Shown here one piece after another: positions 1,026-47,057 of a stretch of 64,000 bases of DNA. The stretch is from Eukaryota sp. GEM-RC1 (taxonomy: Eukaryota): the NCBI GenBank assembly GCA_040285855.1, contig JAUFOQ010000010.1, positions 248,001 through 312,000 of the forward strand, written 5' to 3'. Below the pieces are notes generated by a model. The model worked only from the letters and a program-made list of their open reading frames with translations. It was not told the DNA's origin and did no database searches. Numbering within the stretch: position 1 is the first letter of the stretch; each line of letters opens with the position of its first letter. The position numbers and the translations under genes were made by a program.

Positions 1026-2072
1026 CAGCTAATGGCTAAATGAGGTAAGATGCTAGGATAATGATCTTGGTTGGATCACTTGAGGGAGAGAAATTGATGA
1101 AGACGTTCTCAATCTTCAATGTTTGATAAAACAACCAGCTCATCAACGATATGAATCTTAACCAATACAGCGATTAACGGTGCGGTTCCAACAACATCCA
1201 CACTTCTGGTGCATAATTAGTGTCTTAAGTCATTTGGTTTTTTCTCTTCAATGATCTTTTTCCAGTATACATTATGACGAAAACTTGTCATGTACTCATT
1301 CGACCGGTTTGAGTGAATACCTAGTAGTGATGTTTCTTGAACATCACTTTGCGATAAACATTCTTTGTTCGAACAAGGAATGACTACGAACTGCTTTCAA
1401 TCTCCCTTCACTATCGCCGTATTCTCTAGACCTCATAACTTCTCTTTCAAATCGTCAAAGCGTCTCGATCATATCTTTTTTTGACCACTTGAACTTCATG
1501 ATTCTTACTTCTTTTGGAGAATTATTTGAAATATTTGTTTTGGGCTTATAGAATTCCAAGAACTCATCACGTGATACGGCTAAGGTAAATCACTACATTA
1601 CTTTAACAACTAATCAGTAGTTCTAGATATCATTCCTTATTCTCTTAAAGAACTGTTTCCAAGCCTAAGCATAGTGATTCACTTTTTAAACAACTCCTCA
1701 AAAACAAGACAATAAATATTTTAAATATTCTCTTCTGATTGATATCCAAATTTATTAAGTCAATTAACACTACAAATGCGATTTTAAGTGCGGAGAAATA
1801 CACACCACAAGAAAACATCGAACATATATATATTAACACTACTTAAACGTGTAATTTGTAAAAGAACTGTGGTGCTGTTGACTAGGCGTTTTCGCTGTCA
1901 GCTGTTTCATAAATGGTATTTTGATACATATTTGAAATTTTTCCATGTTCTTCGATGAACACTTTCGTTAATTATTGAAAACACGAACATTGTACTTTTA
2001 TTAAGGAATGAATATCATTTAAATTAAATATAGTACAAGAATACATAACAGAAACTCAGAGTCATCACGTCA

Positions 2073-5000
2073 TCAAAACTTTATACTATCATTTGAGATT
2101 CTTTTGACAAGTTCTATAGTATCTGCATCAATGGAGTTACCGCCTAAATTAATCTCAGTAAAAACAGAATGTAGTTTTAGTGCTTCAGCCAAAGTAATTA
2201 CCCCGTTACTGCTAAAAAAATTATTCCGAATCTTAAGTATTTTAAGATTTAAAAAAGAATCAAATTGAAGCAAATTGACAAATATGGATAAATATTCATC
2301 ATCTAGATTACAGTCACTTAAGTCAACAGAAGTCAAATGATTATTGACCCTGATTAAATCACGCAAAACAGTGAATGTGTCAGCTCCTTAATACCACATT
2401 ACTGCAGAAACGGTATTAAAGAAGAGACTTCTTCAGTTGGAATATTAGTAGTGGTTTCCGGTGAAAATCCAAACACGTGCTGGTCAAAATCAATAAAGAA
2501 AGGGAAAACATCAAGATTCATGATTTGTGAATGGATAGAATTTCAAATAAATTCATCTACTATACACTTTAGATAATTAACTGTTTTACAGAGGCTTGAG
2601 CACTGGTTAAGAAAACTTAATATCACTTAATTCAACTGAATCCAGCGTGATATTTAAACTGAGTAATTCACACAACAAATTCAACGCTTCATCAGTAAAA
2701 GTACGTTTGTCTAGAGTAAGTTCATTTATACAAAACTCCATCAAAAAATACTGTAGATTAGGACTGTGCAGGTTTGGGTTTCAAAAGTTCCAAACCCCAA
2801 ACCTGGTTTAGGTTTGGTTTGGTTTTCCAAAAATGGGTTTAGGTTCAGCTAGGTTTTTAAGTTTTAGGTTTAGGTTCAAACCTAGTAAACCCGATATGTA
2901 TTATGAATTAAAAATACACAGTAGTTTAGTGGAACACTGTCAAAATAAAGTTGTTCTTACGGTAGTACTAGATAAGCTTTATTATTAATGCTCAAGTATC
3001 ACAAACAACTACTAGTGGTGCTACTTTTCTTTTCAAAAAATCGTCTCCAATCCTTAAGACTGACAAGTGCTTGGATACTTTCATCAGTCAGAGAAGCTCT
3101 ATATTCTGTAACTGTGCGTCCAGCAGAAGAAAAAACCTGTTCGCGACAAACAGAAGTTGCTTGGATACCGAAAAAATCTTTGGCCAAGCCGGCCAAATTA
3201 GGATTACGGTTGGAATTTGAATACCAATATGTGAGTGGATCTTTAGATTTTGAGGCAAAATACTTTCACCCAAATATACCATCAACTCCTTTTCGCTTCT
3301 TTGAACGCCTTCAACTCTACACTTTTTGAGAGTAAAAGGTGACTCACGGGGCGAGGTAACAGGAGATGCTGTGTCTTCACTCATCACTTCAATTTCAGAA
3401 GAGTTCTCGTCAATAGAAGCGTCAAGATCAATCATATATAATGTAAGAGTCAGAGGGTTATTGAAATTAAATGTGTTTCATTTTCCTACAGTTCTGAAGC
3501 TAAAGGATTAGGTTTGGTTTTATTAGGTTTAGGTTTAGGTTTGGTTTTTATTCAAAAAGGTTTAGGTTTGGTTTGGTTTTATTAAAAAGGTTTAGGTTTG
3601 GTTTGGTTTAGTAAAAAAGGTTTAGGTTCAGCTAGGTTTAGTAAAAAAAGGTTTGGTTTGAAACCTAAACCCGAACCTGCACAGTCCTACTGTAGATATA
3701 CGACTTCTTCATGGCATATTTTAAAAGAATCATCTGAGTAAAAAGAAAATACACCCTTTTTAACATCAATAAAACAAGGAGAAATATCAAAAGACAAACG
3801 AACAGTATTCACAGAGAGATATTTAAAAAAAGTGATCAAACAACGTAAATGAAAGTAATGGAAACTAACTTTCTTAAGTATATAATTGCCTTCAAGTGAT
3901 TCTAAAATTCTTTCGATATCAAAAGAATCATAGTGTAAAACATTAAGTCTCAAAACCAGCAGACTATGGTTGTTAAGTATCATCCCAATTAAAGACTGGA
4001 CATCTTCATATTTAAAAATAGTCCCAACTTGTTCTGCCAAGTCTAATTCCAGTAAGGAAGAATTACTTTGAAGAGTTTGAAACAGTGTTGATAATCTAAC
4101 ATCACACTTTCTTAGTTCAAGTTTTTTCAAACTCGTGTTAAATTTGAAAATTTCAGAGATTTCAGCAACAAACCGAGTAGTGTAAAAAGTCACTTCCGTA
4201 AGAGAACAATGGTGTTTAAAGTCATTCAGTATTGTTGAATCAATACATGCACAATTAGAATACGCAATACTTTTCAGTCTAGAATTCTTCAACAATGGTA
4301 AAAGAACACTGGAATTTCGAACTGGAAAATTAGATAGATCAATTTTGGTAATATTTGAACTATTTGACAAAGCTGATATCAGTAGCAGAGTTTTTGCATC
4401 TTTAAGTCGATCTCCGGCAAAAGACAATGTAACTGTTCTCAAGGTGTTATTTGAAGAAAACACTTCTGAAAGAGAATGAACTTGAGGTGTAGTAATAGAG
4501 ACAATTTGAACAGTTAAATGCACAACAGTAGTATTATCTAGGAGAAAATTACAAAACGCAGAAAAGGTAGAGCTAGAATTCTCAGCACCACAAATTTCAA
4601 TATCAAGACGTCTAATACGTGGCAAAAAGAAAGCAGACGACTTATCAAATATTTTGTGTAAATTAGCATAACAAGAATGTTCAAACGGGCATTCTGATTC
4701 TGATTCATCAAATTCTGCAAAATAAGGTTTCAATCCTGATGAGATTATCACGTGGGAAATACTAAAAGTGAACTGACGGAGATCTGCAGCTTCAAAAGAC
4801 CAGAACACGTGCAAGACCACAGAAAGGGGATCTACTTTAAAGAAAGAAGTTATCGAGGAAAGTAGAACAAGATCATCAAAATTCATTTCAAGTGTGGAAG
4901 TTTCAAGAAACGCCTTCACTGCAGAGAAAGAACTCTCAAAGAAATGTTGACTTACAAAGCCCACTTTTTCAAAGAATGAATAGAGTCTTTTAATCAAACG

Positions 5001-5216
5001 ACTCAGAGGAGGATGGCATTCACGATCATCCTTTTGATCAGGGAACGTCAAGAGACGCTTGAGGAAATGTGATTGTATTAGAATCAACAAAGACTGTTGG
5101 AAATGGAGACGATTAGAAGAAGAGATGAGTGATGGAGAATGAAGAGATGAGGATAGTTGAGGATCTCCACCACTTGACTGAGTAACAGTACGTATTCGTG
5201 AGTTGAGTATACCCAT
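2073..5216 (-). pseudogene. RNI-like LRR family paralogue disrupted by a hAT insertion
   Basis: ORFs 3687-5216 and 2073-2366 match the N- and C-terminal parts of the 43020-46146 paralogue. The gene is split by the 2759-3689 element and has further indels at 2370-2750. Confidence 0.85.
2759..3689 (-). mobile_element. Internally deleted hAT DNA transposon (931 bp)
   Basis: 23-bp TIR TAGGACTGTGCAGGTT(T/C)GGGTTT; 8-bp TSD CTGTAGAT at 2751-2758 and 3690-3697; hAT C-terminal dimerisation motif (LAKDFFGIQATSVCREQVFSSAG...SLKDW); subterminal GGTTT/TTTAGG repeats. Confidence 0.95.
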
Positions 5217-6025
5217 GATCCTATAGTCCTAGTCAAAAGCAAATTCTCACTTTGATTTCATATTGATTGAGGACTATTTGTTCGTTTTTGAAAGGGCATT
5301 GTCTTAATCCTGACAGTGTTTCTGTACGTTGATTTATGCCACACTGGGTAAAGGTACACATACCAAACAGACTAGTAGAGTCAATCTTGGTCTGGTATTT
5401 GAGCAGCCCATACCAGATGTAAAGTATACTACATGTATGATCTCAAGCTAAATGCATAATATCACTCTCAGGGTAATATAATATTTGACACTAATATAAT
5501 GATATTCAAACATATCAATAACTAACTTCTTTGAAGTTCTTGACATAATTCTCACCATATATGTTTAAAAAAGATCTATTAAGATGGTTTAATTATCATC
5601 CAACCAGAAATAATTGTCGATTTGTGTAGTGTTTCTCTAACCAAAACTTTGATACGTTTTAACAATACGGACGGTTCTTAGATGAACACGAACATTACTC
5701 AGGAGATAGTTGATACTGCCAATCATGTTGCACACTATACATGAAATTATACTGCACAATAACTAGACATGTATTTATCGTTTTCTGTTTGTCAAATCTC
5801 TCTCCAACTACTTATATCATGAGGATCAGACAAGAAAAAGTGTATTGAAATCCCTACAGTGTACCTAAATCAACGCCCAAAAAAAGTGTTGTAAGTCAGG
5901 ATCATTCCACTATCCATCTGCTCGTTTCTTTTCTTTGAAGAAAAATCCCTTTCAAAGAATATGTGGACCGTTGCTTTGACCAAGCAGATGGTCATGTATT
6001 ATTTTGAAGATACGCGACAAAGCGT

Positions 6026-6832
6026 TTGAAACCTCCTAAAAAACCAATGATTGAGTTTCTGAAACATTCCCAATTACCAGATAACTCTAATCATTGTTCA
6101 ATATTGTCTCTTGATATTGAATCTAGAGAAATTGATCAAATCCCTGCAGAGACGGTTACAAAGGAGTTGGATGATCAAAGAAAGAACGAGAATGAATCTC
6201 CCAAATTGAAAAGTGATGCAGAAAGAGAAGTGTGGATTCAAAACCAACAAGTATTTATGATTTCTGCAGTGTTTGGTCATTTTATAAAAGATCAATTTTA
6301 CCTCCAAGACAATTTTGTTGCAACTTTAGAGTTGACTCATGAATGTGATGTTGAACTGCCACCTGATTGTAGAAACCTTCGATTTTTTGAAGACGAAAAA
6401 CAGTTACTAGAGTTTTTTGTCAACTATTTGAATGATAAAAATCCCTCAGTTTTAACTGGATTTAACATAACTGACTTCGATAATGTTGTCTTAGGCAACA
6501 GGATTGTTACACTTGGAGTCGACTTTCCAGAACCAATGCTAGATGAAACAACTAAATCTCATTTATCACCTCTATGGCAAAATGTTTGTTCGGAATGGGC
6601 TGGTAGAATTGTCTGTGATTCTTACGTCTATGCTAAGCAATTTATTGTTTCAAAATGTTCAAAGTCTTTAAAATCATTAAGTTGGTTTTTATTAAACGAA
6701 TCTAAAGGCCGTCTTCATGACGAATTTCACCACTTATTGCCTATTGATTGTGTTGATGAAATACCTCAAGAAGTTGTAAACTATTGCTTCAAAGATAGTG
6801 TCATAGCATTGAAGTTGTTTTTATTGTTTTAA
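6026..6832 (+). CDS. Family-B DNA polymerase-type 3'-5' exonuclease domain with no polymerase domain; in frame with the downstream Fanzor
   Basis: ExoI SLDIES (D at 6113); FEDEKQLLEFF; ExoII LTGFNITDFD; GRIVCDSY...SLKSLS; ExoIII YCFKDS. The listed start is TTG, and the true 5' end is unclear. Confidence 0.9.
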   Translation: MKPPKKPMIEFLKHSQLPDNSNHCSILSLDIESREIDQIPAETVTKELDDQRKNENESPKLKSDAEREVWIQNQQVFMISAVFGHFIKDQFYLQDNFVATLELTHECDVELPPDCRNLRFFEDEKQLLEFFVNYLNDKNPSVLTGFNITDFDNVVLGNRIVTLGVDFPEPMLDETTKSHLSPLWQNVCSEWAGRIVCDSYVYAKQFIVSKCSKSLKSLSWFLLNESKGRLHDEFHHLLPIDCVDEIPQEVVNYCFKDSVIALKLFLLF

Positions 6833-8971
6833 TCAAATCAAATCGTTCGTCCAACTTTTGTAACACACAAAACTACACTAAAGTCTATTGTCAAACATTT
6901 TGGATTAACGTTAATACTCGATTATTATGCTCAATTGGTTCACAAACTTAGAATGCACACTTCCTATTGTTTGAAGCTGTTTTTATTACACATGGATAAG
7001 AATGGTGAATAATTACCATTAATTACAGGGAAGGAAGTAGAACATATTCAAACTCTGTTAAGAAACATCTCTGCTGAACATCATGAGATTAAATAATGTA
7101 ATCAAGGATCACCTCCTGCATTTAATGAAGACTTGAAAAACTTTGTTTTACTAGAATACAAACAAGTAGTGCTCAACAATGGAGGAATTCCACTCTTTCC
7201 AGCTGCTCATTCCTCACGACTTATGGCAATGGTTGGTGAAACTATTAAATCGATTTTGGACACCAATATTAAAATGCGATATGCTCAATACATTGACAAA
7301 TTTTTTAATGTTTATTTTCAAAAGACTGATCAAGAAGAAAAAATGTCAAAAAAAGAACAGTCGGTTTTTCGTTGGAGACTTAGACAAGTTAAAAATGTCT
7401 TTCTTGAAGGTAACAGAAATGATATTCCAAAAACCACTACAGGAATACAACAATTTATTCAAAGATGTAATACAGAAATTCTTCAAGACGATAGTAATAG
7501 AAGTTTGAACATTGCAGGTAAAATTAAACTTCTGTGGGCCACTAACGACTATGTTGAAGGATTTTTTAGAGATAGATATTTTATTGATGTTCTCTTCCCA
7601 CCATCAATTGATATTCAAAATTCTAATGGTGTTTATAAAAAGAAAGTCGTTAAATCTCTACTAAAATCAGTTCGTGAACATCCTCAATCCTTTATTAAAT
7701 CTGCGATTCAAATAAATAACTATCTTGAAAGTGAAGGAGCAAGTGCTTACAATGTAATTCCGATTGTTCGTCACATCACACCAGGTTTCTTTGAAATAAA
7801 TACACAAGGTCTTTGGGGAATATTACGTTCCACTTTGTCAACAAAACAAGTGAATGTCAAGAAGAAAATGTCTAATTGGAATACACAAACTGAAATTCAC
7901 AAAATGTCTCCTGCTGAACAAAATCAATTCTGGTCACATCTTTTCAACTTTAATCGTCCATTTATAAAGAAAGGTTATAAGTTTAACAATACCTTTAAAA
8001 TTGATGGTTTCTCTGCCTGTGTTGAACTTACCAGAGAGGACTGTGTGGGAATGTCATTCAAACCAGACAGTGCAAAGTTCTCCAGTAAAGAAGAATATAT
8101 TCAAGACTATGAAGTTGAAGAGTTTTCATTGAAAACAAAAGTGTTTATTGATCCTGGAAAAACAGATTTACTCTATTTTTGTTCAGAGAGAAGTAAATAG
8201 GCCATTTCCTGAAGAAAAAGCCAGAGAAAGAAGAGATAAAGAATATGAGTGGCTAAGGTTGACAGAGACAGAATGGTCCAGATGGTCAAGGGTTCATCAA
8301 AAGTTTAGAAGGGGAAAGAAAAAAGAATTCATTCTCCAAGATGGAAAAACAGTTGAAGAAGAAGAGTCAACATTATCCAAAGAAAATTCGAAGTCCACTC
8401 TTTATGACACATTCTATGACTATGTGAGTTCCAAACTTACAGTTATTGAATCAACATTTGATTACTACTGTTTGATGATATGGCGCATTCAAAAATGCAA
8501 AGATACGTCCATATTCAAAAAAAAACAGAAAGTAAGTTGTTGAAAAATATGACTGAAAAAGGATGGAATAAAAATGACTGTGTATTGATGTTTGGTGACA
8601 ATGGTAATAAGAGTCAGAACCTAAAACACCTCCGATCAAGTATAGGTGTGAGTTGGAGAAACTTCTTTAAGAGAAATGGTTACAACCTTGTTCTCGTAGA
8701 TGAGAGTTACACGTCTTCAAAGTGTCCTACTTGTTGGAGGCCAGTTAAAGTGTTCAAAGAAATCAATAATCCAAAACCATGGAAAAGAGAGAAGAAACCT
8801 CTGGTAAAGTGTCACGCTTTGTTGAGATGCAAGTCCCAAGAATGTAGAGAAGAATGTCATGGTAGCGCCAAGATTTGGAATCGTAACAAGTTAGCTTGTA
8901 TCAACATCAAGACAATTGTGGAGCATCACTTGGAGCGGGGTCTAGGAGTTAGACCCAGTTATTTGTCATAG
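6833..8971 (+). pseudogene. Fanzor1 (TnpB/IS200-IS605-derived RuvC RNA-guided nuclease), interrupted
   Basis: N-terminal FVTHKTTLKSIVK...VHKLRMHTSYCLKLFLLH; FKIDGFSACV; RuvC-I FIDPGKTDL (8150); FGD and VDESYTSSKCPTC (E at 8702); ALLRCKSQEC zinc ribbon; RuvC-III WNRN (8876-8887); terminal RPSYLS. Interrupted by TAA at 7010 and 7094 and by frameshifts near 8190 and 8493. Confidence 0.9.
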
Positions 8972-9100
8972 TCATAGTCATAGCCTTTATTTAGTACAGT
9001 GAATTGTAGCATTATTGAATCTTTGAATTCATCTATACAAACACTGTCTTACTGTCAGTCCACTGTGTAGTTCATGTAAGACACTGATAAGATCACGTTC
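8938..9100 (+). ncRNA. Candidate Fanzor omegaRNA scaffold
   Basis: Hairpin GGGTCTA-ggagt-TAGACCC (8938-8956). Stem ACAGTG..TTGTA / TACAA.CACTGT (8996-9047). Stem TGTCTTAC/GTAAGACA (9045-9083). The position at the ORF 3' end matches known TnpB/Fanzor loci. Confidence 0.45.
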
Positions 9101-9483: not shown

Positions 9484-9700
9484 AATCCAAAAAGACAAAC
9501 AGTAAAAGGATGAAATACAAATTTGAAATTCGATCTCCATTTAATTCTTCGACTTGAGAGTCATACCTGGAATGTTTTAACTTTTCAGCTTTTTAGTTAT
9601 TAATTTGCAAATGCATTTATTTCACTGATTGATCATAAACCCCGTTTTTTTTAACTTTTCAGCAGCTGTTTAGTGATAAGACGATGAATCTAATATCCTG
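9484..9700 (-). mobile_element. Old RLE non-LTR fragment containing a ~60-bp younger 3'-end insertion
   Basis: Similar to 25127-25265. The insert at ~9590-9650 ends CATAAACCCCGTTTTTT and is flanked by the direct repeat TAACTTTTCAGC (9578-9589, 9652-9663). Confidence 0.6.
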
Positions 9701-9720
9701 GTACATTGTAACACAAGAAT

Positions 9721-11460
9721 TGTTTTCCATAGTGAGTTTCCAGGTATAATGATTAATTCGTATGCTGATGATACTTCTTTGGTTGGCAAAATGCATACTT
9801 TGGAAACCAAGTTTTGCTCGATTTGTTGATCTTTCTGGTCAAATTGGTTTGACAATCAATTTGAGCAAATGTGTTGTTATTGGTCGGGTGGATGACACTG
9901 TTTTGCATGAAGGTGTTGCTATTCCTTTTATTAATTATTCTTCTGATTGTATCAAGTTTCTTGGAAACTTTATTGGCAATTCCTCTCAAATTGTGAGTAT
10001 GCTGGAGAAGAAGATTGATTCTCTTGATCAAAAGTTGAGAAATGTGTTAGATTTGAATGTAGGTAAACAAGTATCCTTTGCCACTTTGCAAGTTTGTTTT
10101 GCAGGTAAAGTCAATCATTTTTTACGTGGGTTACCTCCTGAGCTTACGGTAGACCTTTCTCGTCGTTTTAACGCTCTGAGAACAGAGTTTTTGTCAGAGC
10201 TGGTAGAGTCGAAAAAGCTTTCCATTCATCGTCATTCATTTGCTGCTGTGAGATTTGGTGGAATTGGTTTTCCAAGGCTCGTTATATGCGTGAAGGTGCC
10301 TTTTTAAAATGTTTGAAGAATCTGCTGTATGAATTTAAGTTACGTTATCCCTTACTTTGGTCTAATGAAGATCTCATTCGATATTCGCCTTGTCAATGGC
10401 TTATATCACTTCAAAATCTTGTAGATGGTATGAACCCTGATGTTTGGGAATCCTTGTTCCCTGCATCTGTGACGGAAACACCTCAACGTACGCTTTTTTC
10501 CCTTCCTCTTGGTGTTAGAAAATTTCAGAAGAAATTTGTATCTTTCCATGAGAGCTTGGACTATACTAACTGCATTAGCTTGGCTAAAGTTAAAAGTCCC
10601 GCTTTCTGTGCATTTTTACAAGACATGAGTAGTGATTCAGCATCTACTTTCATTACTCAATTGCCAGGGAGATTTATTTTTAATCTAAAAAGATCATGAA
10701 TGGCTTGTTAACATGAGACTTCGTTTAGGTTTTTGGCCATTTGGTTTGTTACAGAACAGCACGTGTATCTGTAAAAACAAACATAAGGCTAGCTTTCATC
10801 ATTTGGTCAATTGTTCAAAGTTCATATATTGTCGTTCAATTTTGCACAACAGTCTTCGAGATATATGTTTGGAAATGTTTAAGGCAAATGGTTTCCATGG
10901 CAAAGTCGAACCATTACTTTCTCATCTTTCAGATCACCCTGATTCTACTCAGAAACGTGGTGATTTTATTGGCCCTTGGTTGTCATGCCAAGAAATTGTT
11001 GTTGATTTTACGACCGTTGATCCTTGCAAAGCTTCAGCTATTGCCAACATTTTGAATCCCTCAAATGATCCGCTGAAAGACGCTGAGAACGCCAAAGTGT
11101 CTAAGTATGGACATCAAGTTGCTGCATTGAATTCACGAAGACACAATAATATCGTCTTTCAGCCTTTTGCAGTTTCATTGTACGGAAATTTCGGTTCTTC
11201 TACCAAGGAGTTTTTAAGTTTATTTGAAAATTTGTGTTCAGAACTTGGCAAGAAGTTTAACAGATCGTACTGGAAGAGTAAATTTGCTTTTTCGATTTTT
11301 AGGTCTATGTATAGATATGTTGATTCCATTTTGTCCAAGTTGTTTGGAGGCAACTACTTTTCGGAATTAGGTAGTTCGTTTGATAATTTGTTTTAATAGT
11401 GTTTATCTATTTGTACTTAACTTATTATGTGTTTTTCTCCGCACATAAATCCGTTTTTTT
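9721..11460 (+). mobile_element. 5'-truncated CRE-like non-LTR retrotransposon (RT C-half, CCHC finger, RLE endonuclease)
   Basis: SYADDT at 9758-9775; KFLGNFIG; RLRLG..CICK..HHLVNC..HNSLRD; RGDF...VDFTTVDP...AENAKVSKY. TSD CAAGAAT at 9714-9720 and 11461-11467. Ends CATAAATCCGTTTTTTT. Frameshifted. Confidence 0.92.
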
Positions 11461-13533: not shown

Positions 13534-14888
13534 TTACTTCTTCTTCTTGATGTTCTTTTCAGCCTTAACGGTAGACTTGATAACACCAACAGCAACAGTT
13601 GATCTCATATCACGGACGGCGAAACGACCAAGAGGAGGATATTCGGTGAAAGCCTCAACACACATGGGCTTTTGGGGAACAAGTCTGACGATACCGGCTT
13701 CGTTCTTCTTGAGGAATTCAGGGTTTTCTTCAATTAACTTTCCAGATCTACGATCAACCTTTTGCAAGATTGCGTCAAATCGGCAAGAAATATGAGCGGT
13801 ATGACAATCAATGACGGGAGCATATCCAGCACGGATTTGACCGGGATGGTTCATAATGATAACTTGGGCCTCGAAGGAAGCAGTTTCTTCAGCGGGATGA
13901 TCAGCGTTGTTGGAGGCAACAAATCCTCTCTTGATGTCCTTAACAGAGACGTTCTTGATGTTGAAACCGACGTTGTCACCGGGGTGAGCTTCGGGGACGG
14001 ATTCATGATGCATTTCTACGGACTTGATTTCAGCAGTGACACCAGCGGGTGCGAACATGGCGGTGATTCCGGGTCTGAGGATACCAGTTTCAACACGACC
14101 GACGGGGACGGTACCAATACCACCAATTTTGTATACATCCTGAAGGGGGGAGTCTGAGAGGCTTATCCGTGGGACGCTTGGGGGGAGTGATGTTATCGAG
14201 GGCTTCGATGAGAATGGGTCCCTTATACCAGGGAGTGTTGACAGATCTTTCGAGCATGTTGTCACCATTGAAACCGGAGATTGGGACGAAGGGGATCTTC
14301 TCAACCTTGAAACCGATTCTCTTTAAGAAACCGGAGACTTCACCCTTGATTTCATTGAATCTGGCTTCGGAGAACTTGCAGGATTTGTCGTCCATTTTGT
14401 TAACACCAACAATCATTTGCTTGACACCGAGAGTAAAAGCGAGGAGGGCATGTTCACGAGTTTGACCTTGTTCTGAGATACCAGCTTCGAATTCACCAAC
14501 ACCAGCAGCGACGATAAGAATAGCGACATCAGCTTGAGAAGTACCAGTGATCATGTTCTTGATGAAATCTCTATGACCGGGGGCATCAATGATAGTGAAC
14601 TGGAACTTGGCGGTTTCGAACTTCCAGAGAGCGATATCGATGGTGATACCACGTTCACGTTCAGCCTTAAGCTTATCGAGAACCCAAGCGTACTTGAAAG
14701 AACCCTTACCGAGCTCGTTGGCTTCCTTTTCGAACTTAGCGATGGTACGTTCATCAACACCACCACACTTGTAGATTAAATGTCCAGTAGTAGTAGATTT
14801 ACCGACATCAACGTGACCGATAACGACGAGATTACAATGAGTCTTTTCCTTACCTGGAGTGAGATGCAGAATGAAGATACATACCCAT
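13534..14888 (-). CDS. EEF1A: Translation elongation factor 1-alpha; 31-nt intron at 14854-14884; apparent homopolymer frameshift near 14148
   Basis: ATGG|GTATGT...CCAG|GTAAG gives [25 protein letters not shown]. Also [43 protein letters not shown] and [11 protein letters not shown]. An extra G in the G6 run splits RLPLQD. Confidence 0.97.
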
Positions 14889-14975
14889 ATTGGAAACAAA
14901 AAAAAGAGGAAGTGCAAAAGTCATTTTCTCAGACATTCAGGTAGTGCTGACTCATCAACTTGACCGTTTTTAGTG

Positions 14976-20315: not shown

Positions 20316-20890
20316 TGAATAACTCAACGTAGATGAATAAAATTACGACAATAACTTAAATGACGAAAAGCAACATTAGCTCCACCATGAAAAAGTCGAA
20401 TAGTCTAAGAAAGAGCCAATCAAAGACGCATATTGATCATCCGGGCTTCATTAGAAATATAAAATCCAAACACCTGAGGAATTTGAAAAATATATCCAGA
20501 AGGTCCACTAGTACGAAGAAAAATTAAAAAAGCAGCGAACTCGGGACTATTACAGTGTAGTTTTAGCCAAGCTGATACGATTATTAAAGTCAAGAGCTCT
20601 AACTCCATAATCACTAAATTTTACAGTTTACATACAATAGACGGTAGAGATGAATTATTGTAATGCGTGGTGCTAAATGTGGTTCATTAAAGGTCTTAAA
20701 ATCACAAACATACTCTAATTAATCCTAATACTAGCCCTTCCCCACTACTAGCCCTGCTCTAATACTAGCCACGAAGGGGTAGGCTAGTAAAATGCCCAAT
20801 ACTATTCCCCCCAAAGTGTTGTAGATTGTTACCTCCAGAGTTGGAATTCTAGATTTCATTGTTCAATTAAACTCTTATAAAAATTGAATT

Positions 20891-22212
20891 ATGACCGTTG
20901 ATCCTTGCAAAGGTTCAGCTATTGCTAGCATTTGGAATACTTCAAATGATCCGCTGAAAGACGCTGAGAACGCCAAAGTGTCTAAGTACGGACATCAAGT
21001 TGCTGCATTGAATTCACGAAGACACAATAAAATCGTCTTTCAGCCTTTTGCAGTTTCATTGTACAGAAATTTTGGCTGTTCTACCAAAGAGTTTTAAATT
21101 TATTTGAAAATTTGTGTTCAGAATTTGGCAAGAAGTTTAACAGATTTTACTCTGGAAGAGTAAATTTGCTTTTTCGATTTTTAGGTCTATGTATAGATTT
21201 GTTGATTCCATTTTGTCCAAGTTGTTTGGAGGCAACTACTGTTCGGAATTAGGTAGTTCGTTTGATAATTTGTTTTAATAGTGTTCATTTATTTGTTACG
21301 ACCGTTGATCCTTGCAAAGCTTCAGCTATTGCCAATATTTTGAATCCCTCAAATGATCCGCTGAAAGACGCTGAGAACGCCAAAGTGTCTAAGTACGGAC
21401 ATCAAGTTGCTGCATTGAATTCACGAAGACACAATAAAATCGTCTTTCAGCCTTTTGCAGTTTCATTGTACAGAAATTTTGGCTGTTCTACCAAAGAGTT
21501 TTAAATTTATTTGAAAATTTGTGTTCAGAATTTGGCAAGAAGTTTAACAGATTTTACTCTGGAAGAGTAAATTTGCTTTTTCGATTTTTAGGTCTATGTA
21601 TAGATTTGTTGATTCCATTTTGTCCAAGTTGTTTGGAGGCAACTACTGTTCGGAATTAGGTAGTTCGTTTGATAATTTGTTTTAATAGTGTTCATTTATT
21701 TGTTACGACCGTTGATCCTTGCAAAGCTTCAGCTATTGCCAATATTTTGAATCCCTCAAATGATCCGCTGAAAGACGCTGAGAACGCCAAAGTGTCTAAG
21801 TATGGACATCAAGTTGCTGCATTGAATTCACGAAGACACAATAATATCGTCTTTCAGCCTTTTGCAGTTTCATTGTACGGAAATTTCGGTTCTTCTACCA
21901 AGGAGTTTTTAAGTTTATTTGAAAATTTGTGTTCAGAACTTGGCAAGAAGTTTAACAGATCGTACTGGAAGAGTAAATTTGCTTTTTCGATTTTTAGGTC
22001 TATGTATAGATATGTTGATTCCATTTTGTCCAAGTTGTTTGGAGGCAACTACTTTTCGGAATTAGGTAGTTCGTTTGATAATTTGTTTTAATAGTGTTTA
22101 TCTATTTGTACTTAACTTATTATGTGTTTTTCTCCGCACATAAATCCGTTTTTTTTTATTTGTTGTTTTCTTATTATATGTTTTTCTCCGCACATAAATC
22201 CGTTTTTTTGTT
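20891..22212 (+). mobile_element. Head-to-tail array of three 3' ends (407-bp period) of the CRE-like element
   Basis: Units start GACCGTTGATCC at 20893, 21300 and 21707. Unit 3 is near-identical to 11010-11460. The terminal motif is duplicated. The flanking direct repeat AAAATTGAATT is at 20880-20890 and 22213-22223. Confidence 0.9.
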
Positions 22213-22499
22213 AAAATTGAATTTTTGGTTTCCACGTCACGAACACAAAAACGACTCAATTTTAATTGTAGACTCAGACGACTGAGTTCACTCAGTTCAC
22301 TGTCACAAGTCACGAAAAGGTTAAGTAGTATCTAGAATTGCGAAGAAATTTGAAGCATGCTTTTATACCACATCTTATTGTCAGCCTAATGAAACTTGTT
22401 GCTTTAAACCATTCAAGAAACACTTCCGAGAAATTGTTGAGATATATTTTCGAAGATCTAACTGTCCAAAAACAAGTGGACATACTCTTCCGAGTCCAA

Positions 22500-25312
22500 C
22501 AGTTATGAAACTGGGTCAAATGATCAGCCACTTCTTCATGAATCTTCTTTCAAACCTATCCGTCTCCAACAGTCTTCGTTGATACTTATTCATTCTCATC
22601 ACATCAGCCATCTGTTAAAGTTATCTTTTGAAGAAATTCGCTATGATCGTCGCTTCCGTATTTTCATTCGACAACTTTTTTCCTTCTTCAAAAATGTTGG
22701 CTACGTAAGCCATCATTTCCTGGAGTCATCTTCTTATGCAATTAGAGTGTTTTTGAAACAAACACGTGTCACGTGTTTTCAGAAGATCTTCCCCAACTGT
22801 CTTCCCTCACTTCTTTCTTTGGAAGCAAAGGTTCATTCTCTGTGCTTGACATTGAACAGTCGAACTCTAGTAGAAGACATTCTTGAGTTTACTTCTGCTA
22901 TAACTCATTTACAAGCAATTGCTTGTTCTTTCTTACATCACTTACTTGACCATTCTTCTTCTCTTATTCTTCCACGTCTTCGAGTTCTTGAAGTTACCAG
23001 TAAGCCATCTGGTGATTTTTTTTACTTCCTGTTGTAACTCTTTAATGGTTAATAATACTGTTAAAGAATTAAAGCTTCGAATTAATTCCCTTAGTTTTGA
23101 TGACATTGCCTCGTTGGCAGAGGTGCTTAGTTCAAATTCCACCTTGCAAACAATCTCCTTTAGTTCATTTGTCACTCTTAAGGATGAAGAATCTGTGCTT
23201 TTCTTTACCGCAATTTCAAATAATTTAAAAATTTCTAAAATTGATTTATATGGTATTGATCTTCATAATTCAAATTCAAATACTGTTGTATCTCTTTTAC
23301 AGAGTTCTAGTCTTGAAAGTATTAAGTTTCCTACGAATTATCATCTTGATTCTACTGCAGTTAATAGTCTTAAAAACAATTCTTCTCTTAAAGAAATAAC
23401 AATACCAGGATATGCATTCACTTCTGAAGATCTTGCTGATGTTTTACAATTCAATACGTTTTTAAAAAAACTTGAAATCTCAGGATAATTTAGTTTTTCA
23501 CCAATTTGTAAATCTCTTGAAACAAATAATGCTCTATTGGAACTAAACGTTATGCCACTTCACGGCACATCAATTCTCAAAGATTCAGAAGCCCAGTCCT
23601 TAAGTGAATTGTTACAGAGAAATACCAGTCTAATTGCTTTAAATCTTATTGGTGTATATGTGACTACTTCTCAATTTAAAACAATTTTTAAAGGATTGGA
23701 ACAAAATTCAACATTGAAGATATTCATTTTTCCCATATTGAACTTAAGTTCTTTAATGCTAGTTTTTGAAGCAATATTCAAACAAACACTATATACAAGT
23801 GTTGATATTGCTCATCACTTTATTGATGTTAAAACCGGTGTGTTTAATTTTTCTTCAGAAGTATCCCGTAGAATCACTGCTGAAGAAGTTTGCTCTCTAC
23901 AATCTTTTCTAAATTCTCATAATATTACAGAACTTTTTTTTAAGAGGATTTTATTTTACTCCTGAAGCGTTGACTGTTTTGTGTGTTTCAATCAGGGCCA
24001 ATAATTCATTGACTTTTATTGACTTGAGTTATATTGGTTCTTATAAACCAGACTCAGACACTTCTCAGAACTCAATTTCTGATCACGATTTTTTAAAGTT
24101 GATTGATGCCCTTCAATCCAAGTCTAATATAAAAAATGTCTACCTCAATACTAATCCAATTGAAGATAAACTTGGTTTTGAGTGTCTATTTACTGTGTTT
24201 CAGCTTGTATCTGCAAACAAATTAACTGCAAATATTAAATTTTCTCGTCACTCTTTTGATGTTTCTCGTGGTTATATTTATTATGCGCGCTATCTTGGTA
24301 ACCGGGGTTTAGTTGTTCTTTTGGATGCTCTAAAGTCAAAAGCTCCTATTAAACGTGTTGAATGTTGGAAGTGTGGAGGTTCAGGTTTAGAAGGACTTGT
24401 TACTTTATTTGAAATTCGGTCCATCAACAAATCAGTGTTAGATCCTGGTATTTCTCCTCACGTAATTGACGTTGAAAATGGTGTTTTTCAGTATTTACCA
24501 TCAAACTGCGCCCAAATAAATAACTTCGAAAGAAGTCACTTCTTTACAGTCTTTGTTGAAGCGTTTTAGTATCAAAGAGCTTGTTCTCACAAACTGTAGT
24601 TTTACTGATGACGCGATCACTGTCTTATGTGATTCACTCCAGGGTCAATAATTCCTTGACTTCTGTTGACTTCTGTCGTTTTGATGTTTACAACAAAAGT
24701 TTTACGGCTTTAGCTGATGCATTAGCAGTGAATACTTCAGTTGTTGAGATTAATTTCTGTTATAACACTATCAGTCAACATACTAAAAAAATATATTAAG
24801 CGGAAATTAAAAAAAGAGAGATGTTTATTCGGCACCCAATAAGGTAACCTTTCTACAAACTATGAAATTGTAAAAACAAACAAATAATACTAAGATTAAA
24901 TCCAAACGACTTCATCACCACCCGGTAAAAGATTACGTTTATCTACATGAACCTTCACACCAAACTTGTACAATTTCTCAATTAATCTAGAGAAATAGAA
25001 AGGCATATTCCGATATATGGAAAACACTATACGGTTTTTCCATTCAGCCATTCTAAACTTACGCTTCTTTTCTTTACACAATTCTTCGAAATCCTTGAAA
25101 AATTGATCACCAGCAGGACTAATAGATCCAAAAGAGAAACAGCAAAAGGTTGAAACACAAATTTGGAATATGAGTTTCTATTTAATTCTTCTACTTGAGA
25201 GTCATACTTGGTGTGTTTGAGCTTTTCAGCTGCTGTTAATGGATTAAAAGAAGAATCTAATATCCTACTAACACGGAAATTAAATGGTCGCATCAATTTT
25301 AAATACAAGTAG
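22500..25312 (+). pseudogene. LRR family paralogue A (fragmented; retroelement inserted just before the stop)
   Basis: ORFs 22579, 22919, 23537, 23970 and 24581 align to 48496-49962. The last codons (NGRINFKYK*) resume at ~25283-25312 after the insertion. Confidence 0.85.
24812..25273 (-). mobile_element. 5'-truncated RLE non-LTR retrotransposon (462 bp)
   Basis: NPLTAAEKLKHTKY...FVFQPFAVSL...WKNRIVFSIYR; 11-bp TSD CGGAAATTAAA at 24801-24811 and 25274-25284; empty site in the paralogue at ~48525. Confidence 0.92.
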
Positions 25313-26970: not shown

Positions 26971-27460
26971 TAGTACTTAAAAGATATTAAATGATCCACA
27001 TCTACTCTTGAACTAACACGATACAATTTGTACAGAATACGATTCAAATACTTTGGGAAACTTCTATATAAGGAAAAAACAATGCGATTGCGTTAAAGAG
27101 ACTGATTAATATTTTTCCTATGATCACGGCACAACTTTGAAAAGGCACCAAAGAAATTTTCAGCAGCAAATCCAATATTACCAAGAATTGAAATTGAAAA
27201 AGGAATGAACTTAAAAGAAGAATACATATTGGAATTCAGTTTGATCATTGTGTCAGAATAGGTACTGATCTTTCTTTTTCACGCTTTGGATAAATGATTT
27301 TCAGTGTCACTCGAAACTGAATTCAAATATACTTTAGCACATGGATCAACAGTAGTAAAATCTATCACAGCTTGACAAGAATCAAGATATGGAACAATGA
27401 GATCACCTCGTCGAGAATTGGTAATATTATCATCACTACAATGCTTAATAATATTATTAT
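26971..27460 (-). mobile_element. RLE non-LTR 3' fragment
   Basis: RRGDLIVPYLD...DFTTVDPC...NHLSKA; inverted copy at 46560-47057. Confidence 0.85.
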
Positions 27461-27881
27461 TTATAAATGTTCTCAAGGAATGTCTGGAACACTGTCATTG
27501 ACAATATCACGTGTTTGACAATGCGATAGAAAGATGGACATTTTACACGTAGCAGACAAAGAACCGTGGACAGATAGTCTTTTGACTGTGGTTTGTTTTG
27601 AATAGAAGTTATGTGACTTAACTCAAAGTCATTCGAACAGAAAAACAAAATATGGTTAAAAGATTTCAACCACCTAGAAACAGAAGAAAGACGTAAAATT
27701 GATTTGTGTTCCGAAGGTGTTGCTAAACTCAATAGCAATACGACATCGAACTGTGTATTTATTCCATTTGCTATTTCTATTGTCGGTAGCATTGGTGAAA
27801 TACCAAAATTGGTTATCCTTCTTCTTCAGTTGATCTCGTGTCAGATAACTCCACTCTTCACTTTTAAAAAAAAGGCTCTGA

Positions 27882-30800
27882 ATGCATAATAGCATCTATT
27901 CCAGTTTCGGAGATACGTCCTCCAACCCCCAACCATTCTCATCTTTGACACATTCACTTCCACTCCTTCGTGAATCTTCTTTCAAACATGTCCATTTCCA
28001 ACAGTCCTTGTTGATACTAATACAGTTTCATTATCTCAACCGTCTCATAAAGCTTCCCCTTCCTTTGAAGATATATCATAAACCCCTCTTAGATGTGATC
28101 AACGGACTCATTTCCTTCTTTGAGAAAGTTGGCTTCGTTAGTCAACATTTCTTCGATTCTGCTTTCTCTGCAGTGAAATTGTTTTTGAAACCAACACATT
28201 TGAGGTTGAATCTAATGATCTTGTTCTACTCTATTCAATTTCCTCTTTCTTCAAAGCAGATATACACTCTGTGGCCTTGGCCGTATTCCCATCGCTAGAA
28301 CTTGCAGACATCCATCAGTTCACTGATAGTATTTCCCAGGTGTTACTCTTATCTGGGTTTCGTCCTTATGATGCAGAATTCGATGGCTCTGAATATGGGT
28401 CAGACTCTGAATTGGATTATACTGGTGACACCAATATACTCGAATTATTTGATAAGTCGTCGAGTTTTTTTCTGCCACGTGTTACACGTCTTAATATCGA
28501 AATTTATGCTACTTCACAGCCCAAATCTACCTTTTCTGCGTTTTGTAAAGTTCTCCTAGCTAATACTACTGTTGTGCATCTAAGTGTTAAAATTTTTATT
28601 ATTGCGACACCTCAAATTCAATGTCTTTCCGAAGTGTTTTCTTCAAATAACACCTTGAGAACAGTTACATTGTCTTTTGACGGAGATCGACTTAAAGATG
28701 CAAAAGCTCTGCTACTGATATCAGCTTTGTCAAATAGTTCAAGTATTGAAAAAATTGATTTATCTAATTTTCCAGTTCGAAATTCCAGTGTTCTTTTACC
28801 ATTGTTGAAGAATTCTAGACTTAGAAGTATAGTCTTTTGCAAAGGTGGATGTATTACAATACTGAATGATCTTCAATACAATTGTTCTCTTAGGGAAGTG
28901 ACTTATCACAATAATAGTTTGGTTTCTGAAATCTCTGAAATTTTCAAATTCAACACATGTTTGAAAAAACTTGAAGTAAGAAAGTGTAGTGTTGAATTAT
29001 CAACTCTTTTCAAACTCTTCAAAGTTGTTCTTCCTTACTGGAATTAGACTTGGCAGAACAAAGTGGCACTGGTTTTAATGGTCAAAATGTCTTCTTTTTA
29101 ATTGGGATGATACTTAACAACCGTAGTCTGCTGGTTTTGAGACTTAATGTTTCAAAACATACTGTATTTGAATTTGAAAACATTCTAATATCTTTAAAGC
29201 GCAATTCTACACTTAAGACGGTTAGTTTTCATTCGTTGAATTTAAGTCATTTGACAGCGTTATTTAAATATCTCTCTGTGAATACTATTCGTTTGTCTTT
29301 TGATATTGCTCCTAATTTTATTGACGTTAAAAATGGTGTATTTTGTTATTCATCCTATACGTCTACTCAATTAAATGCTGAAGAAGTTTCATCTTTACAA
29401 GTTCTTTTGACGAGTTTTAATCTCAAACAGCTTATTCTTAGGAAATGTCGGTTCTATGAAGAATCAATCACTATATTGTGTAATTCAATAAGTTCAAATA
29501 ATACCTTGACTTCATCTTCATTTGAAATATCAGTGAATTCCGTCAATCTGTATTCAAGCCCCTTTTCAAGATCATTTAGGACCGAAACTGAAGATTTCTC
29601 TCAATTAATTAATGCACTTGAGCTTAACGCCAATTTAAAACAAATCAGTCTCTTTAATGATAACATGTGTTTTAAGAATCTTTTGTATATATTTGAACTG
29701 GTTTCAAGCGGTAGATTAACAGCAAATATCCAAGTTTCTCCTCATGTTATTGATGTTTCTCTTGGTTTGATTCATTACCACAATTTTTTTTTGAAAACGG
29801 TGACTTAATTTTACTTCTAAATGCTTTACAGTTAAACCTTCCTATTAAACGTGTGTGTAGTCGTGGATTGAAAAGTCCAAGTCTTGAAGGTCACTTGTAT
29901 CGACTTGAAATTCTTTCAATTAACAAATCAGCGATTGATCTCATTGTTGATCCTTTTTTTTGTTGATTTTGAAGAGCACGTGTTTGTATTTTCCCCAAAA
30001 ATGACTACCCAAATCACTACCGAAGAAGTCTCTTCTTTAATACCGTTTTTACAGTATTGTGGTATTAAAGAGTTAACTATTAATAATTGTCGTTTTTCCA
30101 TTGAAACATTCACTATTTTGTGTGATTTAATCAGGGTCAACAACCACTTGACTTCTATTGACCTCAGTGATTGTCATCTAGATGATGACATGATATTGAC
30201 TTTTACCAGTGCTCTTCAATCCAATTGTTCTTTAAGAGTGGTTAATCTGAGTAAGAACCACTTTGGACTAAAAAGTCTTTTAATTATCTTTCATTTCCTC
30301 CTCTCAGTTAATAAGTTAACACGTGATATTCAAGTGTCCCCTCACTCCATTGATTTTTCTCGTGGTCTTATTCGATTTGAGAGCCAAATTGAAAACTGTG
30401 ATTTACATGTTCTATTGGATGCTTTAAAGTCAAGTGTTCCTATTAAATGTGTTGAATGTCGTGGATTGAGAAGTCCACGTCTAGAAGGACTTGTTGCTTT
30501 ATTTGAAAAATTTTTCATTAACAGGTCAGTGATAGACCTGAATGTTTCTCCTTTCTTTATTGATTTTGAAAAGAACTTGTTTGGATTTTCACCCAGAAAA
30601 CACGACTAATATTCCGACTGAAGAAGTCACTTCTCTACAACAGTTTCTACAGTATTGTGGTATTAAAGGGCTGACTCTTAATAATTGTCGTTTTTCAATT
30701 CAAGCATTCACTATTTTGTGTGATTTAATAAGGGTCAATAATCACTTGACTTCTATTGACCTCAGTGACTGTAATCTAGATGATGAATATTTATCCATAT

Positions 30801-31007
30801 TTGTCAATTTGCTTCAATTGAATTCTTTTTAAATCTTAAAATACTTAAGATTCGGAATAATTTTTTAGTAATAACGGGGTAATTACTTTGGCTGAAGCAC
30901 TAAAACTAGATTCCATTGTTACTGAGATTAATTTAGGCGGTAACTCAATTGATTCAGATACTATAGAACTTGTCAAAAGAATCTCAAATAATCGTATTAA
31001 GTTTTGA
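27882..31007 (+). pseudogene. LRR family paralogue B (frameshifted)
   Basis: ORFs 27882, 28271, 29050, 29884 and 30542 are collinear with 46146-43020. N-terminal HFQQSLLILIQ...FFEKVGFVSQHFF; RVNNHLTSIDLSDC repeats. Confidence 0.9.
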
Positions 31008-31996
31008 TGACGTGATGACTCTGAGTTTCTGTTATGTATTCTTTTGCTGTCCTTGTTTGTAGATATGCTTTGCTAATAAATGTATAATACAGGGGTTGAA
31101 CAAAAACAAATACAAACAAAAACGATTACAGATCAAAGTACAAAGATAATTATATTGTGTCCTATTACATATGTGTCTGTAAAATCAATGTTCAATGATT
31201 GACTATTTTGATTCATTTTTTATTAATACTCAATTTAAACAATGATATATATTTTTCGTCTGATGGTTTCAATCCTGTCCAAACCGCCAAGCCCCCTCCT
31301 AAAAAGGCAGATACTCTTCGTCTGTTACCTAAGATGTACAGTGTTTTCTCTTCAATTCATCCTGTCAAACGTAACTGTCCTGTTCGGAAGAACGCACACG
31401 ATAGAGATTTTTCTTTGTCTTTGTTCCATGAGCATCTGTCTTTATAAACGACATCTGTTGACGTGTTTGCTCTTACAAAGACAGTGTGATTGATAAAGCA
31501 TGTGAGAAAAGTCCACGTACTAAGCCAATGTTTTTTAAGCTTAACGTTACGTTATACAATGAGAGTGAAGATTCTCATTGTGGTTTTTTCATGCATATAA
31601 TAACAACAGAATACCTCTGATGGGAGATTGGTTGCGATTAGACTGAATTTAAAGTGCACGACATTTAAAGAACTTTAGTACCATTCTGTTGCGAATGTGA
31701 ATCGTCTATATGCTTCAATCAGACATACTGTCAGAAAAAACTCAATTCCAGATGTGAATTGAATTTAAGTGCATTATTAAAAGAACAGTTCTAGAATTTG
31801 TCGAGTTAATGTTCCACTTAAAGAGAGACTAAAGTTGAATTGCTTACGTTCTAGTAATGTACTAAATTAACATTGTACATGTAATTGCGAACAAATCACC
31901 CTATTCTTCACTAAAATCCACCGGATAGCGATTAAGTTGTTTGCATTTGGTCTTAGTGTTGTTTATGTGTTGTACAAGTTCAAATTTTTGTAAAAG

Positions 31997-33047
31997 ATTC
32001 CCTTTTTGATCAAATTATTTATAGAACAAAAACACTTAAATAAACACAAATGCTAGAACTCAATATCATTAAGGCAACAATCATCGCCATTCAAACTCAC
32101 ATCAGCTGTTTCTTCATAAAAACACTGAGAGCTAATAGAGCTTTTGAAATCATGATAGGAATTGTTTTAAATATTGTAAAAACAATACGATTCAACCAAA
32201 ATTTGAAATCAAATCTCTTATTCTCTCTTTTTTGACTACTTTCTCAAAATCAGAGAGAAAACAAAGAGCATCTCTACCAAGTCGACCATAAATTGAAATT
32301 GCAAAAGGACATTATTTGTAATTAACGTGTCTAATATGTTTGAGAGCAGTCAGTGGTTCATCATATTTGTTTCTCTTGTATTGTTCTGAAGAAATCAGTG
32401 GAGAAACTTCATTTTTAGCATCCCTGAAAGCACTTTTTTTGCAAACATCCACAGTAATCACATCAACAACGGTTAGTTCATCGTTGACTGATGGAACTAT
32501 GACATCAGCTCTTCTTTTACCAAAAGTCTTATCAGAATCACTATTTTTTGAATTATTGATTTCCAGTGACCTCAACAGTGGCTCAACGAAAGATTCGATT
32601 TTGTAGGACTTACACCTGGCATGAATTTGATCTCTAACAGCATCATGAATACAAGTTCTATAAGTAATGAAACGACTACAACTCAAAAGGTGAGAAAAAG
32701 TAACTAATTTACCACATTTGCATTGAAGATCATTGGGTAAATTAGAGGGCCACAAGAAACATCGAAGTCTGAATGTTGTAGTCCATTGATGATCATTCAA
32801 CAACAAACCATAAATCTGAGGAATTTGGTTAATCAAAGCAACTGAAGAACTGTCCTTCAAATCAATTAAAAAATTTGCGAAAGCTGGATTTTTTTCTTTG
32901 GCCGACCAAGTCGAATTTTAAAATCCATACCTTCGAAATGTTTTAAAAGGTGTTTTTGGAGTTTCTTCAGTGCAAATTTTAACGAGGTGACACATCGTTC
33001 TGGTATTTCACAAATATCTACTGGAAAACAAGTTTGCCAGAGGTCAG
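31997..33047 (-). mobile_element. 5'-truncated CRE-like RLE non-LTR element inserted in the left duplication arm
   Basis: FRLRCFLWP...CKCG...HLLSC...HDAVRD...RRADVIV...VDVITVD...KRNKY. Absent from the inverted partner at ~41970. Confidence 0.88.
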
Positions 33048-41343: not shown

Positions 41344-41973
41344 TTACAAAATTGCCCAGATTTCTTCCTTCATCTTACAAAATTGCCCAGATTCATTCTC
41401 TGTATAAAACACATACTGTACATGTAACTTATTTCATTTATTTTTCTCTTCATTTTCATTGTCAAATATTAATTTCCTAATTTATCTGTAGTGGGAGTCA
41501 GAATTACTCATGCCCAGGATATGTTTCAATGACAGAAATGAACTGGAGTTTTCTTGATTGCAAGACGACGATTGTCCAATGATAGTATTGATGCCTTGTC
41601 TTGTTGAGTGTGAATTTCACAGTTCCCTTCACTATTAAAAGATACCCAAAGGAGAAACACGCGGACTGAATCAAGCTTGGTGTAATACAAAGGCTGTAAT
41701 TGACCAAGTATTGATAGACAGTGATGTGATTCAAGCTACAGGAAATGCATTAGAAGACTTTGATGTATCTCAAGTGGAAGAAGACAGTGTAAAATGTGAC
41801 TTCATCGGTGAAGTGGTATGGATTTAATATCTATTGAGGGGGTAGTTATAAATAGAAGTGGGAAGACATGAAAAGTTTTTCACAGGTTCCATTTGAGTTT
41901 CTACTTCATCATTAACTTTTTTATTCGTTTTGTTTACTGTGCTAAAAGCTGTATTCGGTACCCAAAAGATAAC

Positions 41974-47056: not shown

Positions 47057-47057
47057 G
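46560..47057 (+). mobile_element. RLE non-LTR 3' fragment
   Basis: RRGDLIIPYLD...DFTTVDPC; FIPFTISILGNIG...LWRNRIVFSLYR. Confidence 0.85.

Follow-up and report, generated by a model that had tools for sequence, protein, structure and literature searches.

Three genomes of skoliomonads, a metamonad group (PMC11316075), contain a gene family in which a family-B polymerase (PolB)-type 3'-5' exonuclease domain (Exo) is fused to Fanzor1, a family of RNA-guided RuvC nucleases. It is near certain that this in-frame fusion is real. The analysis started from a stretch of 64,000 nucleotides (nt) of Eukaryota sp. GEM-RC1 (contig JAUFOQ010000010.1, positions 248,001 to 312,000; hereafter the window), which contains one copy only of Exo-Fanzor. 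An earlier note, made from the DNA letters, had proposed an ancestral fusion that is now broken by stop codons and frameshifts. Indeed, Exo and Fanzor lie in a single reading frame from 6026 to 8197, which is continuous except for TAA codons at 6830, 7010 and 7094. Truncated at its 5' end and interrupted by three stops, this copy of the family is dead.

The ExoIII pattern was detected in 35 of 248 collected proteins, the window's own included and P0017, which has a frameshift inside ExoIII, left out. The other 34 proteins read through position 6830 via an L-F-Q into Fanzor in 33 cases (10 from GEM-RC1, 20 from TZLM3-RCL and 3 from TZLM1-RC), and Gln is found there in other copies; a conserved stop, which together with a separate Fanzor start would have spoken against the fusion according to the earlier note, was not found. 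The remaining protein, P0045, has a junction shorter by about 55 residues and is probably a spliced model, and Fanzor still follows. The fused proteins span subfamilies down to about 30% identity, and ExoIII is present in 32/32 skoliomonad proteins with at least 60 amino acids (aa) ahead of the first REC helix, so that co-occurrence of Exo with this Fanzor is consistent. Searches of the protein database returned nine matches for Exo, all from Eukaryota sp. GEM-RC1, and nine for Fanzor (seven from GEM-RC1, the window's own and one from TZLM3-RCL). The window's own Exo protein shares a 90% cluster with GEM-RC1 proteins. Eleven gene models of 940-2027 aa (ten from TZLM3-RCL, one from TZLM1-RC) carry ExoI-III, RuvC-I, the alternative Glu, the zinc finger and RuvC-III in one open reading frame (ORF), and P0044, P0046 and P0240 are intact natural ORFs. 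Among the collected proteins there is no complete GEM-RC1 model; overlapping GEM-RC1 models cover the same domain order. All of these relatives are predicted gene models, and some (P0045, P0037, P0226) are plainly spliced or chimeric, as would be expected if the fusion were an artefact of gene prediction or a chance adjacency. However, tblastn aligned the window DNA at 6536-8197 to residues 1-555 of P0025 (92%) across the junction, and since the DNA aligns to the models over the full shared length, no intron is needed for the read-through. The junction is also kept in three genomes, and the Exo and Fanzor trees are congruent. Chance adjacency is refuted by the alignment across the junction together with the read-through in the relatives, which leaves the artefact explanation with a negligible probability.

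The Exo domain displays all characteristics of the PolB-type (DEDDy) exonucleases, namely ExoI DxE, ExoII NxxxFD, ExoIII YxxxD and the fold. In the window, DIE, GFNITDFD and YCFKD are intact at the positions first given, and a Pfam scan matched PF03104 (DNA_pol_B_exo1) to 6026-6829 with E 2e-14. The best profile match is DNA polymerase (Pol) delta (E 3e-11), and the modelled domain (residues 1-246) superimposes on PolB Exo domains with Z 18-19 and a root-mean-square deviation (rmsd) of about 3, Pol alpha, epsilon, delta and Pol II being tied as nearest. Matches in the ESM Atlas are generic PolB Exo clusters. Across the aligned rows, many of which are near-identical copies, conservation is almost complete for ExoI (D 39/39, E 38/39), ExoII (N 38/38, D 37/38) and ExoIII (Y 36/36, D 35/36); every motif is kept in 7/7 subfamily representatives that cover ExoI, and all Exo acidic residues in 10/11 full models. 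The domain shares motifs and fold with family-B proofreading domains; in contrast to family-B polymerases, it has a helical insertion of about 35 aa after ExoI and lacks the polymerase domain. Pfam scans of the window and the fused proteins gave no DNA_pol_B match for a palm or fingers after Exo, and in the model Fanzor starts right after the ExoIII helix, in agreement with the earlier proposal that Fanzor has replaced the polymerase.

By sequence, motifs and fold, the second half of the protein is Fanzor1. The intact homologue P0044 matches SpuFz1 with E 5e-24, and its AlphaFold2 model, built from a 133-sequence alignment, reached a predicted local distance difference test score (pLDDT) of 88 and a predicted template modelling score (pTM) of 0.76; it superseded a poor first fold with 20 sequences (pLDDT 52). 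Residues 247-940 of the model align with SpuFz1 (Z 27.2, rmsd 3.3, 565 residues aligned), and PpFz1 and GtFz1 match as well. The WED-REC-RuvC-zinc finger fold is thus shared with SpuFz1 (PDB 8GKH/9CEZ), PpFz1 (9CF0) and GtFz1 (9CER) at Z 22-27, and both domains named in the earlier note are backed by hidden Markov models and predicted fold. In the model, the two domains adjoin directly, with the ExoIII helix ending at 242 and the first WED strand beginning at 251. ESM Atlas matches to Fanzor are generic Fanzor-like clusters (0.76), which serve as a lead only.

The RuvC-I motif DPG is present in 10/11 full models and replaced by DLG in P0240. Fanzors are defined by an alternative RuvC-II Glu about six residues ahead of the zinc finger (PMC10711439); the corresponding sequence is DESYTSSKCPTC...C..C in the window and ExxTSSxCP in 11/11 full models, all of which retain both the RuvC-I Asp and the alternative Glu. 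DPG and the alternative Glu are shared with known Fanzor1 proteins, and the RuvC triad D-E-N of the skoliomonad Fanzors is that of GtFz1 (PMC10432273, PMC11423790). RuvC-III is Asn in the window and in 31/32 skoliomonad proteins, which sets them apart from the Fanzor motif of Bao and Jurka with its 'RD' and from 118 of the 131 scored proteins among 149 homologues listed, which have Asp. The substitution was first read as a dead RuvC, and it could mean that Fanzor, weak as a nuclease, serves to bind DNA under RNA guidance and thereby brings Exo and the proteases to chromatin. However, GtFz1 is reported to be active with the same triad and SpuFz1 D606N to be more active (PMC11423790), so that the first reading was downgraded and DNA cutting is likely retained. 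With the RuvC-I Asp and the alternative Glu kept as well, a DNA-binding role of this kind seems very unlikely. Since the active sites are conserved, both nucleases, Exo and Fanzor, are predicted with good confidence to be active.

The copy in the window has accumulated several lesions (Table 1). Homology to the longer copies P0021, P0047 and P0060 starts abruptly at 6014, and tblastn with these copies gave no match for the upstream linker or protease part anywhere else in the window; the copy is therefore truncated within the linker, and the ORF start at 6026 given in the earlier note is not a true beginning. In other copies, the codon at 6830 is for Q, that at 7094 for L and that at 7010 for K, with L/P instead in the second GEM subfamily; this identifies the three TAAs as copy-specific substitutions. 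A variant code with TAA as Gln was rejected on the same grounds, and the 24-nt GT-AG intron suspected at 7005-7028 was discarded, as this stretch is coding in other copies. The two compensating frameshifts seen earlier were recovered by tblastn, in which homologues align in frames 2, 3 and 2 (+1 near 8186, -1 at 8491-8495). The -1 shift occurs in both subfamilies (8/9 GEM-RC1 models), and a homopolymer assembly error is plausible here, because the named skoliomonad genomes are Nanopore assemblies with Illumina correction (PMC11316075) and the EF-1alpha gene of the window (13534-14920, - strand) is interrupted near 14140, where the frame shifts by one base within a C run. The EF-1alpha shift suggests either a pseudogene or homopolymer errors that escaped correction. 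An A9 run at 8517-8525 adds one codon to the window copy, and the last ORF gave a weak match to the TNB zinc finger (E 3e-4), under the cut-off of the Pfam scan.

Table 1. Features of the Exo-Fanzor copy, in window coordinates
Feature	Position	Strand	Basis or remark
Basic-linker remnant, truncation point about 6014	6014..6097	+	tblastn of P0021, P0047, P0060
PolB-type 3'-5' exonuclease domain	6098..6829	+	PF03104, motifs, profile matches, ortholog model
ExoI DIE	6113-6121	+	motif
ExoII GFNITDFD	6458-6481	+	motif
ExoIII YCFKD	6782-6796	+	motif
Copy-specific TAA at Exo-Fanzor junction (other copies: Gln)	6830..6832	+	LFQ read-through elsewhere
Fanzor1	6833..8971	+	intact homologue P0044 vs SpuFz1; predicted model
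First WED strand of Fanzor1	~6851-6874	+	
Copy-specific TAA (same-subfamily copies: Lys), coding, not intron	7010..7012	+	
Copy-specific TAA (other copies: Leu)	7094..7096	+	
RuvC-I DPG	8150-8158	+	motif
+1 frameshift, near 8186, also in one other model (P0025)	8183..8192	+	
-1 frameshift in A5 run, common to 8/9 GEM-RC1 models crossing the site	8491..8495	+	
DESYTS, with alternative Glu at 8702-8704	8699-8716	+	motif
C4 zinc finger, starting with CPTC at 8723-8734	8723-8845	+	motif
RuvC-III Asn in WNRN (8876-8887)	8885-8887	+	motif
Fanzor1 stop codon	8969-8971	+	
Expected omegaRNA position	8972..9100	+	one modest hairpin at 8993-9049

A whole product of about 980 aa, as first suggested, falls short of the longer ORFs, which are polyproteins of 1.2-1.9 thousand aa. 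Upstream of Exo they contain a Lys-rich linker, a 2A-like motif and zero to two C48 protease domains. PF02902 (C48) matched P0046 with E 2e-17 and P0047 with E 7e-9, the His, Asp/Asn and Cys motifs of C48 (Ulp1/SENP) proteases were found in the relatives by alignment, and the best solved match of the P0051 protease is SENP8 (E 3e-6); the C48 fold with its His and Cys motifs is shared with SENP8/NEDP1 (PDB 1XT9). The 2A-like motif occurs in nine proteins, in five as canonical GDVEANPGP and in four in degenerate form. GD(V/I)ExNPGP is also known from 2A-bearing non-LTR (long terminal repeat) retrotransposon ORFs, and the motif alone is no guarantee of activity (PMC3708506); in contrast to these ORFs, no reverse transcriptase was found in the scanned skoliomonad models, in which the functions of 2A and protease are predicted. 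Pfam scans of the fused ORFs gave no match to RepHel or DDE transposase either. The position of the 2A-like motif varies: in P0046, P0052 and P0037 it stands ahead of the proteases, in P0243 behind what is left of a protease, and in P0140 at a distance of 61 aa from ExoI, on its upstream side; between Exo and Fanzor it was found in no protein examined. Since the upstream parts vary and 2A never separates the two nucleases, Exo-Fanzor is the constant unit of a variable polyprotein. It is quite improbable that the chain is a polyprotein only, from which the C48 or a host protease splits Exo from Fanzor so that each acts apart: 2A-like motifs and C48 domains do point to polyprotein-type processing, but the junction is short with a conserved LFQ and without 2A, in one subfamily the 2A-like motif is followed by ExoI after only 61 aa, which contain no protease, and the proteases resemble SENP8, which is an isopeptidase. 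Two further observations concern the linker. A motif block, Y..F..S(I/L)PG...R.KR......EAE.L..S...TPK(I/V), is present in P0046, P0052, P0060 and P0101, conserved ahead of Exo in several subfamilies and without Pfam match. P0226 (TZLM3-RCL) joins a DEAH-like helicase to a copy beginning inside the linker and is probably a truncated insertion or a chimeric gene model.

Exo and Fanzor have evolved under similar constraint. Comparison of the two species, and of RCL-A with RCL-B, gave identities of 40-48% for Exo and 46-54% for Fanzor vs 27-29% for the linker. Trees of eight representatives, in which long-branch rows are unplaced, group GEM_A+GEM_B, RCL_D+RCL_E and GEM+RCL_A/B for both domains. 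An unfiltered phmmer search with P0044 against 1.84 billion representatives gave 1103 matches at E<=0.001; in the best 150 of these, Exo is present in six, all named skoliomonad records, and the other 144 Fanzor-type matches are without it. In a FastTree phylogeny of 137 Fanzor C-halves, 12 proteins, ten of them named skoliomonad proteins, form one clade with support 1.0. The simplest reading of these sequences would be one fusion event in the skoliomonad lineage. Copies within a subfamily share 94-98% identity and are dispersed over many contigs, which points to recent spread. Copies are also clustered: a further copy no more than 40 gene numbers away was recorded for 10/19 TZLM3-RCL loci (2.8 expected, p 0.001) and for 15/40 GEM-RC1 loci (7.9 expected, p 0.03), in a test on a subset of loci by locus tag to which adjacent fragments of one element may contribute. 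Pattern scans found relatives in 0/591 and 0/504 candidate stretches of metagenome contigs and, with the fusion alignment, in 0/96 candidate stretches of viral contigs; with a Fanzor-only alignment, distant Fanzors were detected in 2/556 viral stretches. One of these two, on a giant-virus contig (L001, 2618-5573), is a 646-aa stand-alone Fanzor1 beside a transposase-like ORF, without Exo in front.

For the biological role of the fusion, trimming of cut DNA ends during homing of the element is proposed. The intact polyprotein comprises a 2A-like motif, zero to two C48 proteases, a basic linker, Exo and Fanzor1 in one ORF that most simply derives from a single ancestral fusion, and its RNA-guided Fanzor half would likely cut element-free target sites. 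The Fanzor1 cut in the non-target strand has been reported to fall 14-17 nt beyond the target-adjacent motif (TAM) (PMC10432273). Such a cut would leave a TAM-side 3' tail unable to pair at the left junction of an element-bearing donor, because the element would sit between the TAM and the guide-matching flank there, and the tail would have to be removed before or after copying. The tethered Exo may remove this tail, in analogy to the gp43 Exo and DexA of phage T4, which contribute to td-intron homing at a cut 23-25 nt from the insertion site (PMC2988022), and to the yeast Pol delta Exo, which chews back 3' ends in break repair (PMC9477423). Host recombination would then copy the element into the trimmed site, and the SENP8/Ulp1-like proteases might, speculatively, tune host repair or silencing. 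The 'resection' suggested earlier has the wrong polarity, since a 3'-5' exonuclease takes off 3' tails and never makes them. Restorative homing, a proposal for OMEGA systems in general, has been demonstrated for TnpB and IscB (PMC13565253). We give even chances to the view that Exo trims the cut 3' tail and thereby aids homing. The full picture of a self-contained homing polyprotein, which cuts the empty site, trims the end, releases SUMO/NEDD8 proteases via 2A to steer repair or lift silencing, and spreads by gene conversion without a transposase of its own, is far more tentative and, taken as a whole, unlikely.

Several observations weigh against a role in homing, beginning with the dependence on predicted gene models. 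P0045 (GEM-RC1) is a mosaic, mostly 94-100% like subfamily B to about residue 500 and then 96-100% like subfamily A, which could reflect recombination between copies or an assembly chimera. Where a review of these systems deals with Fanzors, cleavage is given and homing is not (PMC13565253), and fusions of evoMmeFz2 with TREX1, TREX2 or T5 all impaired editing, in an assay that scored indels rather than homing (PMC12923547). At the expected omegaRNA position of the one DNA copy, a modest, non-significant folding signal (z -1.9) appeared in one of six post-hoc windows and in none of the others, the region as a whole gave z +1.4, and no credible Rfam match was obtained. No terminal repeats of the element stand out at the window copy, which is itself truncated.

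Alternatively, the fused Exo could make the break irreversible by eroding the ends against re-ligation, and thus destroy targets such as competing elements or empty alleles. The anatomy and conservation fit this equally, and engineered TREX2-Cas9 fusions act as a precedent (PMC13370227). However, Fanzor guides are taken from the flank of the element itself, an origin that points to homing at empty sites, and they end about 14-15 nt beyond the element (PMC13565253), and the exonuclease fusions reduced MmeFz2 indels (PMC12923547). We consider this role doubtful. Exo might instead mature the 3' end of the omegaRNA, thereby setting guide length, or process transposition intermediates, and the DEDDy fold includes RNases. 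The defined guide end just past the element (PMC13565253) and the DnaQ-like accessory domains of retrotransposon polyproteins (PMC6338049) would be in line with such a function. The domain, however, is PolB-type with DNA polymerases as best profile and fold matches, and the 144 other Fanzor-type matches among the best 150 of 1103 lack it, which makes a function on RNA or transposition intermediates rather improbable. Trimming for homing remains the preferred role.

Known Fanzor1 proteins are encoded by ORFs of their own within transposons whose ends are defined, whereas the skoliomonad protein has an N-terminal PolB Exo and is part of a 2A/C48 polyprotein. A functional parallel is T4 td-intron homing, in which the endonuclease I-TevI acts along with a family-B 3'-5' exonuclease that affects homing (PMC2988022); there, gp43, DexA and RNase H are separate proteins and recognition is protein-based, whereas the fusion is predicted to be one RNA-guided chain. 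TREX2-Cas9 and the TREX1, TREX2 and T5 fusions of evoMmeFz2 likewise tether an exonuclease to an RNA-guided nuclease (PMC13370227, PMC12923547); these are artificial, use other exonucleases and, in the Fanzor2 versions, lost activity, in contrast to the evolved and conserved skoliomonad fusion. In the titles and abstract openings of the literature searched, no natural Fanzor-exonuclease fusion was reported, while supplements, Repbase and subscription papers could list some; the word 'exonuclease' occurs 0 times in the main texts of PMC3627910, PMC10432273, PMC10711439, PMC10530073, PMC13565253 and PMC10691335. A conserved second nuclease on Fanzor1 is thus apparently undescribed.

About 750 bp past the Fanzor stop begins a frameshifted, 5'-truncated element (about 9700-11460, +), which we take to be non-LTR retrotransposon-like with a YADD motif and a Cys/His plus restriction-like C-terminus; Pfam and NCBIfam gave no match for it, and its 3' end is repeated in tandem at 20889-22155. 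Two LTR-retrotransposon-like elements (50423-56723 and 58861-63963, +) have protease, reverse transcriptase, RNase H and integrase matches, the former flanked by identical 76-bp direct repeats. An expanded leucine-rich repeat (LRR)-like gene family occupies 1989-5228, 22462-24811, 26971-32006 and 41964-49958 and includes a 5-kb inverted duplication with 96% identity.

The Fanzor1, TnpB and Cas12 effectors known so far depend on the host to process the DNA ends that their cleavage produces. In the skoliomonads, a polymerase-derived second nuclease has become fixed on Fanzor1 and was kept under constraint similar to that of Fanzor across the radiation of subfamilies. For genome editing, the family offers an evolved coupling of nuclease and exonuclease where engineered Fanzor fusions failed (PMC12923547). 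The fusion makes it testable how Fanzor benefits its element and whether homing needs the removal of the TAM-side 3' tail; because intact natural ORFs exist (P0044, P0046, P0240), one point mutant would separate the two activities. If the reading as a self-contained homing polyprotein is true, the family would provide the first case in nature of an RNA-guided nuclease that both cuts and trims.

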